Assembly: GCA_964389525.1 (NCBI GenBank)
Contig: CAYMEX010000005.1
Location: 12,044-76,043 of the forward strand
Direction: 5' to 3'
DNA length: 64,000 bases
DNA from: an uncultured Muribaculaceae bacterium
GTDB taxonomy: Bacteria; Bacteroidota; Bacteroidia; Bacteroidales; Muribaculaceae
The notes under the pieces are model-generated. The model was not told the DNA's origin. It made no database searches and saw only the letters and a list, made by a program, of their open reading frames with translations. The translations under genes were made by a program, and so were the position numbers. Position 1 is the first letter of the stretch. Every line of letters starts with the position of its first letter. Below are positions 32,300 through 40,440 of this stretch, piece after piece.

Positions 32300-32830
32300 A
32301 TTCCCCCGCTTGTGTAGCATGTGTAACAAGGTGCCTTTCAGGCACGCTTTATCGGCGATTTTTTAGAAGGTGTGTCAAAATAGGCTTTGGGCGTACTGTC
32401 GCACGCCCCTACGACGTTTTAGATTGATTGTACGTATGACAGACTGTTGATTTGTAGGGGCGTGCGACAGTACGCCTACCCCTTCCGTCGAAGACGGATG
32501 ATAATGCAAAGCCCCACATCAAGCGCGACAAGCGCGATAGTGTGGGGTATGATCGTTTTTATAAAATGTGGCCTCGGAGAGGTCGTTTATCTGATATCTT
32601 CGACGCCAGACATCCAGGTCTGTCGATTTTTCCCCCACGCCTTCGGCATTTGCATACATGGTCTGATACCTGACGGCATTTTTAGTAAGCGGAATCGTAT
32701 GACTACGGAATTTAAAATGCCTGAAAGGCATTTGAGAATATTAGCCGGGGGCACCGACAGGTGCCTCCGGGATTTTTAACGATGCAGAAAAAGTGCCTGA
32801 CAAGGCACCTTGTTACACTGTCCGAGGGTG
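32300..32830. repeat. mosaic REP cluster separating the sigma and anti-sigma genes
   Basis: GTAACAAGGTGCCTTTCAGGCAC at 32322-32344. An inverted pair of GTAGGGGCGTGCGACAGTACGCC units at 32389-32412 (reverse complement) and 32453-32477. One copy of the roughly 165-bp composite element at 32481-32646. A roughly 100-bp composite at 32713-32815 that matches 40151-40258 in reverse complement. Confidence 0.85.
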
Positions 32831-39349: not shown

Positions 39350-39584
39350 GTGTTTAACGGAAGATCGAAACAACAGAGGGAATTTAATGGTGTTGCAGAA
39401 CTACCGTTACTAACGCTTTGTGAAATTCAATATTTCAATGCCTGAAAGGCATTTGAGGGACAAGCATAAGCGCAAGGTGTTTAACGGAGGATCGGAGCAA
39501 CTGAGGGAATTTAAGAGGGTGTTGCAGAAAACTACCGTTACTAACGCTTTGTGGAATTAAATATTTTAATGCCTGAAAGGCATT
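39350..39584. repeat. tandem repeat, about 127-bp period, 2 copies (39350-39453 and 39477-39584)
   Basis: The unit is GTGTTTAACGGARGATCGRARCAAC.GAGGGAATTTAA...ACTACCGTTACTAACGCTTTGTGRAATT.AATATTT.AATGCCTGAAAGGCATT. The copy-to-copy junction sequence recurs at 40236-40300, on the far side of the transposase gene. Confidence 0.85.
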
Positions 39585-39644
39585 AAAAGTTAGTAGCTGG
39601 GTGCACTGCAAGTGCGCCCGGACAATATGCGCCTCCTCCCAATA

Positions 39645-39667
39645 GTGCCTGAAAGGCACCTCGTTAC
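39645..39667 (-). repeat. REP hairpin flanking the transposase (reverse orientation; overlaps its stop codon)
   Basis: The reverse complement reads GTAACGAGGTGCCTTTCAGGCAC. This is the same family as 40151-40174 and 32322-32344. Confidence 0.8.
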
Positions 39668-40113
39668 ACCTTTGGGAAATACGGGTCATCGGGAGATATC
39701 CCGTTTTCTACAAGCCATGCTCTGTATTCATCAATAAAAGACCTATGGCGGTGGTGTTCTTTCTGACTTTCAATATATTTCCTCACAGAGTTCAGCTCTC
39801 TGAATCCACATGTAAAACTCGCATATCCTTCCTGCCAGCCTTCCCAAAAAGGAATGATGCGCCTGTCTCTGATATATTTTGATGATTCCTGTTTGACAAC
39901 CCTTATAATCTCAGAATGCGCCACAGTAGTTGGTAGGCTAACCAGCAGATGGATATGATCAGCCATACCGTTTATAGCGTAGACATATCCCTTGTATTTC
40001 ATTATAAGAGAAGTGATCATGCTATAAATTTCAGCTTCGGCATTTAGCTGAATTACAGATTTTCTCCCTTTTGGAGAGAAAACGATATGGAAATAATGAC
40101 GGATGTAGCTCAT
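39664..40113 (-). mobile_element. IS200/IS605-type Y1 (HUH) transposase, REP-associated tyrosine transposase (RAYT)-like, 149 aa
   Basis: HUH motif (ADHIHLLV) and a catalytic Tyr context (SVRKYIESQ). It is a single gene with no tnpB and is flanked by inverted REP hairpins. Confidence 0.85.
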
Positions 40114-40150
40114 GGTATCTTTTTTTGTTTCGCAAAGATAAGAAAAGCAT

Positions 40151-40174
40151 GTAACAAGGTGCCTTTACAGGCAC
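40151..40174 (+). repeat. REP hairpin flanking the transposase (forward orientation)
   Basis: GTAACAAGGTGCCTTTACAGGCAC, inverted relative to the copy at 39645-39667. Confidence 0.8.
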
Positions 40175-40440
40175 TTTTCAGGCAACATCAAAAATCCCGG
40201 AGGCACCTGTCGGTGCCCCCGGCTAATATCCCAAAATGCCTTTCAGGCATTTGAGGGACAAGCAGAAGCGCAAGGTGTTTAAAGGAGGATCGGAAATGCA
40301 CTGCGGGATGTCGGCGGATGGGCGGTCGGTTATCGCGATTTCGATATACGGGCCTACTGACATCACATCGCTATCGCGATAACTTGCCGATGGCATAGCG
40401 GTTACGTGGACAGTACGCCCACAAATCGGAAATAGTATTC
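40175..40440. repeat. REP mosaic downstream of the transposase start
   Basis: CCCGGAGGCACCTGTCGGTGCCCCCGG, AATGCCTTTCAGGCATT, CGCGATTTCGATATACGGGCCTACTGA (reverse complement of the unit in 5.5 kb cluster) and GACAGTACGCCCACA. Confidence 0.75.

Follow-up and report, generated by a model that had tools for sequence, protein, structure and literature searches.

The window analysed here is a stretch of 64,000 nt from an uncultured Muribaculaceae bacterium (assembly GCA_964389525.1, contig CAYMEX010000005.1, positions 12,044 to 76,043; C5:12044-76043 in our contig numbering). It harbors a 684-bp unit at 39568-40251, in which a gene for a Y1 enzyme of the HUH type lies between two inverted modules of about 100 nt. 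Each module comprises three hairpins and abuts the gene with a tagged end. The host genome, denoted G000, amounts to 2.6 Mb in 38 contigs with a G+C content of 53% and an assembly completeness of 94.6%. It was compared with other genomes, among them those referred to below as G001, G002, G003, G004, G011, G014 and G029.

The Y1 gene and its two flanking modules

The gene (39664-40113, minus strand) is an intact open reading frame (ORF) of 149 aa with a Pfam Y1_Tnp domain (E = 5e-25), placed below in the IS200-related subclass 1.2. Its HUH motif reads DHIHLL, with DHIH at residues 52-55 and the histidines at H53 and H55. This is followed by WQ at 93-94 and by the tyrosine motif RKYIESQKEHH, of which YIESQKEHH occupies residues 113-121 (Y113, Q117). 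Across 20 homologues with identities down to 32%, twelve alignment columns do not vary, H53, H55, Y113 and Q117 among them; in the C-terminal tail, F126 and E129 show no variation either, and L134 is conserved to at least 90%. With a dN/dS of 0.10 relative to its orthologue in G003, the gene is under purifying selection. The exact 149-aa protein had no record in the protein look-up; a 95% identical protein, named as coming from a Muribaculaceae metagenome-assembled genome, supplied the syntenic contexts discussed below.

The first-pass annotation of the window had described a 149-aa ORF with an HUH motif, a catalytic tyrosine (RKYIESQ) and no tnpB, and this description holds. A profile search with PF01385 (OrfB_IS605) found no tnpB, neither adjoining the gene nor anywhere else in the genome. 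The annotation had also named an ordinary multicopy insertion sequence (IS) as the case that would speak against its view. Instead, a genome search found the gene in a single copy, the seven other Y1 genes of this type being only 33-38% identical to it.

Downstream of the gene, the first module occupies 39568-39667 on the minus strand, folds as single-stranded DNA (ssDNA) with z = -3.2 and is 85% identical to the matching module of the orthologous unit in G003. Read along that strand, it consists of a TGTAAC tag (39663-39668), a first hairpin (hp1; GTGCC-TTTCA-GGCAC, 39645-39659), a second one (hp2; about 39597-39621) and a third one (hp3; AATGCC-TTTCA-GGCATT, 39568-39584). The TAA stop codon (39664-39666) falls within the tag. 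The upstream module (40151-40251, plus strand) folds as ssDNA into three hairpins with z = -4.8, its parts being a GTAAC tag (40151-40155), hp1 (40159-40174), hp2 (CCGGAGGCACC-TGTC-GGTGCCCCCGG, 40197-40222) and hp3 (40235-40251). Both modules follow one layout, i.e. TGTAAC tag, 3 nt, hp1, a variable spacer, a long hp2, a T-rich stretch and hp3, and they are 71% identical to each other. The two GTAAC-tagged hairpins that the first-pass annotation saw inverted around the gene, GTAACGAGGTGCCTTTCAGGCAC (reverse strand, 39645-39667) and GTAACAAGGTGCCTTTACAGGCAC (40151-40174), are indeed present at these positions, one of the tags enclosing the stop codon. The repeated unit is nevertheless the 100-nt three-hairpin module and not a single repetitive extragenic palindrome (REP), each of the quoted hairpins being the gene-proximal end of a module.

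Between the upstream module and the ATG lies a spacer of 37 nt (40114-40150, minus strand), and the two together make up a non-coding segment (40114-40251) that is 91% identical to its counterpart in G003. The promoter consensus of Bacteroides is TAnnTTTG. The spacer holds a box of this Bacteroidetes type, TATCTTTG, at 40133-40140, and the same box is found in the G003 orthologue and 5' of two of the other Y1 genes in the genome (Y_C5b and Y_C37). It would serve as the -7 element of a promoter, so that the gene probably has a promoter of its own inside the unit.

Further copies of the hairpin had been announced at about 32322, at about 32790 and at 39436-39590, and the first two of these exist. 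At 32323-32345 (plus strand), a solo GTAAC tag with an hp1 of the GTGCC type, i.e. a truncated module, gives way to a different repeat family. The exact-type tagged hairpin at 32793-32816 (minus strand) belongs to a third full module of the GTGCC subtype (32716-32816, minus strand; fold z = -5.3), which lacks a gene and shares 89% identity with the module upstream of the Y1 gene. The third region instead contains an untagged palindrome of the hp3 type, AATGCCTGAAAGGCATT (39437-39453), as part of a 127-131-nt tandem array abutting the unit. The pattern GTAACRAGGTGCC-N5-6-GGCAC matched four times in the window, against 0.00 matches expected from 100 shuffles, and these same four are the only ones in the 2.6-Mb genome. 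No significant blastx match to a decayed Y1 gene was obtained inside the 32323/32816 pair, nor inside a gene-less, inward-facing module pair on contig C9.

The tandem repeat (39350-39600 and 40235-40312) combines the hp3 palindrome with TGAGGGACAAGCA..AAGCGCAAGGTGTTTAA. Its array runs on either side of the 684-bp unit, as if the unit took the place of one array spacer between two hp3 palindromes, and the same tandem repeat is found to the right of the unit in G003.

A dispersed family of three-hairpin modules

A census of 16-mers in the genome yielded several hairpin families at 35-66 copies. One abundant family, TGTAACAAGGTGTCTTTCAGACACC, corresponds to the hairpin of the window unit except that a C-G pair of the stem is replaced, in a compensatory manner, by T-A, i.e. 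it carries GTGTC...GACAC instead of GTGCC...GGCAC. The genome-wide count proposed in the first-pass annotation thereby gave a divided answer: a family of about 50 intergenic copies exists, whereas the exact hairpin quoted is rare, with four copies, the abundant form being its sister variant.

Alignment of all copies delimited an element of 97-103 nt with sharp ends, represented by 51 full modules, 48 of them dispersed. A T precedes the tag (position -1) in 49 of the 51. The consensus reads, in order, T-GTAAC, AAG, hp1 (GTGTC TTTCA GACAC), a variable spacer, a T run, hp2 (CCGGGCACACC TGAC GGTGTACCCGG), CTAC, a second T run and hp3 (AATGCC TTTCA GGCATT), with stems of 5-7 bp, and as ssDNA it folds into exactly these three hairpins (z = -5.4). 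The dispersed copies have a median pairwise identity of 88%, the tag and the hairpins being near-invariant and the spacer variable. No Rfam family matched the modules of the window gene or those of the other Y1 genes in the genome (E <= 0.1-1).

The pattern GTAACRAGGTGYC-N5-GRCAC was found 46 times in this genome, twice in G003 and not at all in 29 other Bacteroidales genomes. Among the 31 genomes, G003 is also the only other one with a 95% identical orthologue of the enzyme. A chance origin of the hairpins was rejected, as the shuffles predicted none and the reversed pattern, used as a control, gave no match.

The modules lie predominantly between genes. According to a crude, ORF-based gene map (89% coding, 11% non-coding), 35 of the 48 dispersed copies are located in the non-coding 11% of the genome (p = 1e-23). 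The other 13 sit within ORFs of 104-182 aa that cross repeat arrays, i.e. in spurious short ORFs. Convergent genes surround 26 out of 44 copies, compared with 15% expected, and a single copy lies between divergent genes. Many copies form arrays in the same orientation.

Modules of different types also occur side by side. The segment at about 32483-32584 of the window matches the module of about 100 nt that flanks another Y1 gene, Y_C38, and its orthologues in G002 and G004 (TCCGTCGAAGACGGA ... CCCCACATC..GATGTGGGG), so that modules of at least two Y1-associated families make up a mosaic in the 657-nt intergenic region between sigma and anti-sigma genes. At C1:107045-107536, modules of three such families (the Y_C38, Y_C5b and Y_C5a types) are adjacent in one intergenic island, and contig ends (C38/C9 and C17) fall in mixed-module islands of this kind.

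Family placement, paralogues and homologues

The protein scored 24.4 bits against the NCBIfam model REP_Tyr_transpos (NF047646), below its cut-off of 80, and 74.3 bits against the IS200/IS605 model, above its cut-off of 55. Sulfolobus, IS608 and ISDra2 TnpA were its matches in a PDB sequence search, in which E. coli TnpA-REP was not matched. The structure matches of its AlphaFold2 model (pLDDT 90) at ranks 1-29 were likewise IS608, ISDra2 and Sulfolobus TnpA, E. coli RayT (PDB 4ER8) appearing at rank 30. A tree was computed from 61 sequences. In it, a clade with 100/100 support and a branch length of 1.96 unites nine canonical IS200/IS605 TnpA, of which several adjoin tnpB, and excludes all Bacteroidales proteins. 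E. coli RayT was placed on a very long branch, and the window protein clustered with its G003 orthologue and a homologue from G011. The phylogeny suggested in the first-pass annotation thereby sets the protein apart from the canonical IS200 clade, and an ordinary IS200 element is ruled out by copy number, end structure and tree.

The tyrosine motif is Y---Q--HH and not the Y---NP of class 2, i.e. of RAYTs (tyrosine transposases that are associated with REPs; PMC6006769). A published description that does agree is that of subclass 1.2 of TnpA_Y1 (Quentin et al. 2018, BMC Genomics 19:475, PMC6006769), with DH[IV]H, WQ, Y---Q--HH, a length of about 148 aa and a conserved C-terminal tail. Members of this subclass are related to IS200 but lack IS properties, have low copy numbers and low intragenomic identity, and are known from Cyanobacteria and Bacteroidetes. 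Judged by sequence, the window protein fits every protein-level feature of subclass 1.2 and is not a classical RAYT. The first-pass annotation was correct about the RAYT-like architecture (a single-copy Y1 gene, no tnpB, inverted tagged hairpins), while membership in the RAYT family did not hold, given the score of 24 bits against 80, the Y---Q--HH motif and the IS608-like relatives. Where the locus departs from the description of subclass 1.2 is in its repeats, as the subclass is tabulated as 'REP: no' (PMC6006769), as opposed to the REPtron-like units, TGTAAC-tagged modules and tens of dispersed copies found here. The automatic REP search behind that table accepted only hairpins with a GT[AG]G foot whose stems measured 7 nt or more (PMC6006769).

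Altogether, eight Y1 genes of this type, seven of them distinct, were found in the genome. Y---Q--HH is present in all eight and in 44 of 44 Bacteroidales homologues, and the start and stop of every one of the eight adjoin inverted hairpins particular to that gene. In the case of at least Y_C38 and Y_C5b, the flanks are again three-hairpin modules of about 100 nt, in units of about 685 bp. Dispersed module families exist as well for Y_C37 (about 50-64 places), Y_C38 (about 31-45) and Y_C5b (about 14-16). At C37:2595-3080, Y_C37 runs with its 3' end into one copy of a 40-copy hairpin, TCAGTCTCTGCGAGACTGA, and the repeat therefore encodes the C-terminal residues and the stop codon of this gene. 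The only identical pair of Y1 genes in the genome, Y_C1a and Y_C1b, lies in tandem, 894 bp apart and with modules, at C1:188329-189657. Tandem or nearby Y1 duplicates are also found in G029 and G014; in the 31 genomes the duplicates of the family are local and none is dispersed.

Inverted repeats in the flanks, scored as present above the 95th percentile of mismatched controls (upstream/downstream pairs), were detected in 33 of the 44 Bacteroidales homologues (75%), which come from 30 related genomes, with a median score of 15 compared with 7. The corresponding figure was 58% in a wider set of 69 homologues, mostly from Bacteroidota and also from Acidobacteriota, Planctomycetota and others. 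In the same genus, G001, which has no Y1 gene, contained no 14-mer with four or more copies in 400 kb (C1, C2), compared with 496 such 14-mers in 400 kb of the genome studied here. The G+C content of G001 is 48%, as compared to 53%.

In its genomic design, the system resembles the REPtrons of Proteobacteria (E. coli RayT, PDB 4ER8; Pseudomonas REPIN-RAYT), in which class-2 enzymes are paired with REP, BIME or REPIN repeats. Both systems have a single-copy Y1 gene between inverted tagged hairpins and a cognate repeat that is dispersed between genes, clustered, biased to 3' ends and co-varying with the protein, and in both several gene-repeat pairs can occur within one genome. They differ in protein lineage (24 bits for NF047646, Y---Q--HH instead of Y---NP, 4ER8 at fold rank 30), in the tag (TGTAAC at 3 nt from the hairpin foot, as opposed to a GTAG or GT[AG]G foot) and in the repeat (a three-hairpin module of about 100 nt instead of a palindrome of 20-40 nt or a two-REP REPIN). 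A direct contrast is provided by the same genome, in which a class-2-like RAYT gene is found at C7:24326-24859. It has the motifs NHIH, WQ and YITNN, scores 56 bits for NF047646, below the cut-off of 80, and lies between inverted hairpins with GTAG tags; about 40 copies make up the family of the downstream one, GTAGGGACGCACGGCTCGTGCGTCC. A classical REPtron is therefore present in the genome as well and probably explains the GTAG hairpin families there.

With the TnpA of IS200/IS605 elements (IS200, IS608, ISDra2; subclass 1.1), the window protein shares the fold, the HUH motif and tyrosine, a glutamine four residues past the tyrosine, the best PDB matches by sequence and structure and the NCBIfam assignment. 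It differs in standing outside their clade, in not being multicopy, in the genome-wide lack of tnpB and in having ends that are inverted copies of one module rather than a left and a right hairpin that are distinct from each other and lie on the same strand. Class 3 TnpA_Y1 of Solibacter usitatus and relatives (Quentin et al. 2018, PMC6006769) also combine an IS200-like tyrosine motif containing Q with genes flanked by atypical hairpins, without a GTAG foot, that reach high copy numbers. Their motif is, however, Y----Q, their length about 178 aa and their foot CnGA, and they come from other phyla.

Readings of the locus and their meaning

Taken together, these data make it likely that the unit belongs to a REPtron-like system built on the subclass 1.2 lineage, in which a chromosomally fixed gene would encode a functional, non-IS Y1/HUH endonuclease-ligase for ssDNA, and its cognate tagged modules would have been multiplied between genes. 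If it acts as IS608 TnpA and E. coli TnpA-REP do, the enzyme would bind one or more folded hairpins on ssDNA, e.g. at replication forks. The tag beside the hairpin foot would position the cut, and cleavage would proceed through Tyr113 with a metal held by His53, His55 and Gln117. Rejoining of the ends could then lead to modules being excised, copied or reinserted, the gene itself remaining single-copy and fixed in the chromosome.

Several points weigh against this reading. Catalysis, binding, cleavage and mobilisation are what we infer; what was observed is the anatomy, the family placement, purifying selection, the pairing of genes with cognate modules, dispersal and a bias towards intergenic DNA. 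Overall, the flanking modules share only 67-70% identity with the dispersed copies, from which they also differ in the stems of hp1 and hp2. It is likewise a deduction that the abundant GTGTC variant is moved by this enzyme instead of a different one, and the variant could belong to an enzyme that is missing from the 94.6%-complete assembly. Every dispersed module is embedded among other repeat families, with no clean insertion site or target definable, and segmental duplication of such mosaics could explain part of the copy number. As all dispersed modules are thus embedded, and as the genomes of the same genus are without the family, empty sites could not serve to define cleavage points. Flank inverted repeats are common without being universal, since 25-42% of the homologues have no detectable one. 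The closest non-orthologous homologue, in G011 (46% identical), is flanked by GCGTC...GACGC, and there the hairpin is present solely as the two flanking copies. Flanking hairpins alone therefore do not imply dispersal, and amplification is lineage-specific.

The history of the locus bears on all readings. In three assemblies of the G003-type species (contigs L096-L098), the gene order SusC-SusD-Y1-lipoprotein-ABC-permease places the unit at the same locus as in the window, in the opposite orientation. Similarly, the unit of Y_C38 is inverted in G004 (L027) relative to G000 (C38) and G002, and other paralogues are syntenic with their orthologues. An orthologue of the window gene occurs in two out of seven genomes of the genus. 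The whole unit is 92% identical to G003:C281:464-1147 (94% at the nucleotide level for the gene, dS 0.23), compared with 85% for housekeeping DNA and 72-73% for the flanking genes. This excess similarity is compatible with exchange or movement of the unit as a whole, possible causes being selection on the DNA hairpins, recent exchange and unit movement.

Such similarity, the patchy occurrence in the genus, the inversion between two species at one locus and the IS200/IS605 assignment by NCBIfam (74 bits, cut-off 55) would all suit a low-copy autonomous IS. In that case, the 684-bp unit would be an IS200 relative of an unusual kind whose ends are inverted hairpins, and the dispersed modules would be derived from it as non-autonomous miniature inverted-repeat transposable elements, the gene being selfish instead of fixed and domesticated. 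We regard this as unlikely. The gene is single-copy here, and no dispersed second copy of any family member was found in the 31 genomes, the duplicates being tandem. The SusC-SusD/lipoprotein-ABC locus is the same in both species, other paralogues have kept their synteny and the protein falls outside the canonical IS200 clade (100/100). Moreover, the ends are inverted copies of a single module and not the distinct, directly oriented left-end and right-end hairpins of IS200/IS605.

It is less probable still that the modules are host hairpins, i.e. terminators, mRNA stabilisers or protein-binding sites, which spread by duplication or recombination without any Y1 enzyme, the gene merely landing or persisting in hairpin-rich islands. 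This would agree with the position of modules at the 3' ends of genes, with a GC-rich hp2 stem followed by a T run, with the mosaics that all modules form with other repeat families and with the hp3 palindrome being shared with the 127-nt array. It does not account for inverted modules that abut start and stop precisely, with a tag overlapping the stop codon, an arrangement kept in G003. Nor does it account for a module type specific to each paralogue, for hairpins that change with the protein, for flank inverted repeats in 75% of homologues compared with 5% of mismatched controls, for a family confined to genomes with the orthologue, or for a Y1-free congener devoid of such repeats. Of all the explanations, we give the least credence to an inversion switch, in which the 684-bp segment would be flipped by host recombination or by the Y1 protein, module dispersal being a by-product. 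The opposite orientations in G000 and the three G003-type assemblies, together with those of the Y_C38 unit, fit such flipping, and flanking modules of only 71% identity are a poor substrate for homologous recombination. Since the predicted promoter lies inside the unit, however, inversion would not act as an on-off switch for the gene. Rare recombination at the 17-nt identical palindromes also fits two inversions across a divergence at the species level, and we know of no HUH/Y1 enzyme that catalyses inversion.

If the REPtron-like reading is extended to the whole genome, subclass 1.2 would be a second repeat-forming Y1 lineage, domesticated independently of the classical RAYTs and with a tripartite module of about 100 nt as substrate. 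At least four enzyme-module pairs, plus one pair of GTAG REPs and RAYT, would have built the intergenic repeat islands of this genome, and the flips of the unit between species would hint at enzyme-mediated excision and reinsertion. We judge this extended proposal to be as open to doubt as it is credible. A literature search found no report linking subclass 1.2, or Y1 genes of Muribaculaceae or Bacteroidales, to REP-like repeats.

The textbook example of a domesticated transposase by which a population of short repeats is kept up in bacterial genomes is that of REPs and their RAYTs. To our knowledge, what is understood of it comes almost entirely from Proteobacteria and from class-2 enzymes. 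The genomic design recurs here around a different Y1 lineage, one that is listed as repeat-free in the reference classification, and in the Bacteroidales, a dominant gut order in which intergenic repeats are barely described. The annotation of such genes as 'IS200/IS605 family transposase' is therefore misleading. If the link between enzyme and module is true, it would imply either an independent or a much older common origin of repeat-forming Y1 enzymes, and it would account for much of the non-coding repeat content of Muribaculaceae genomes and for their assembly breaks. It would also provide a natural set of orthogonal enzyme-hairpin pairs within one cell, in which the recognition of ssDNA by HUH enzymes could be studied.

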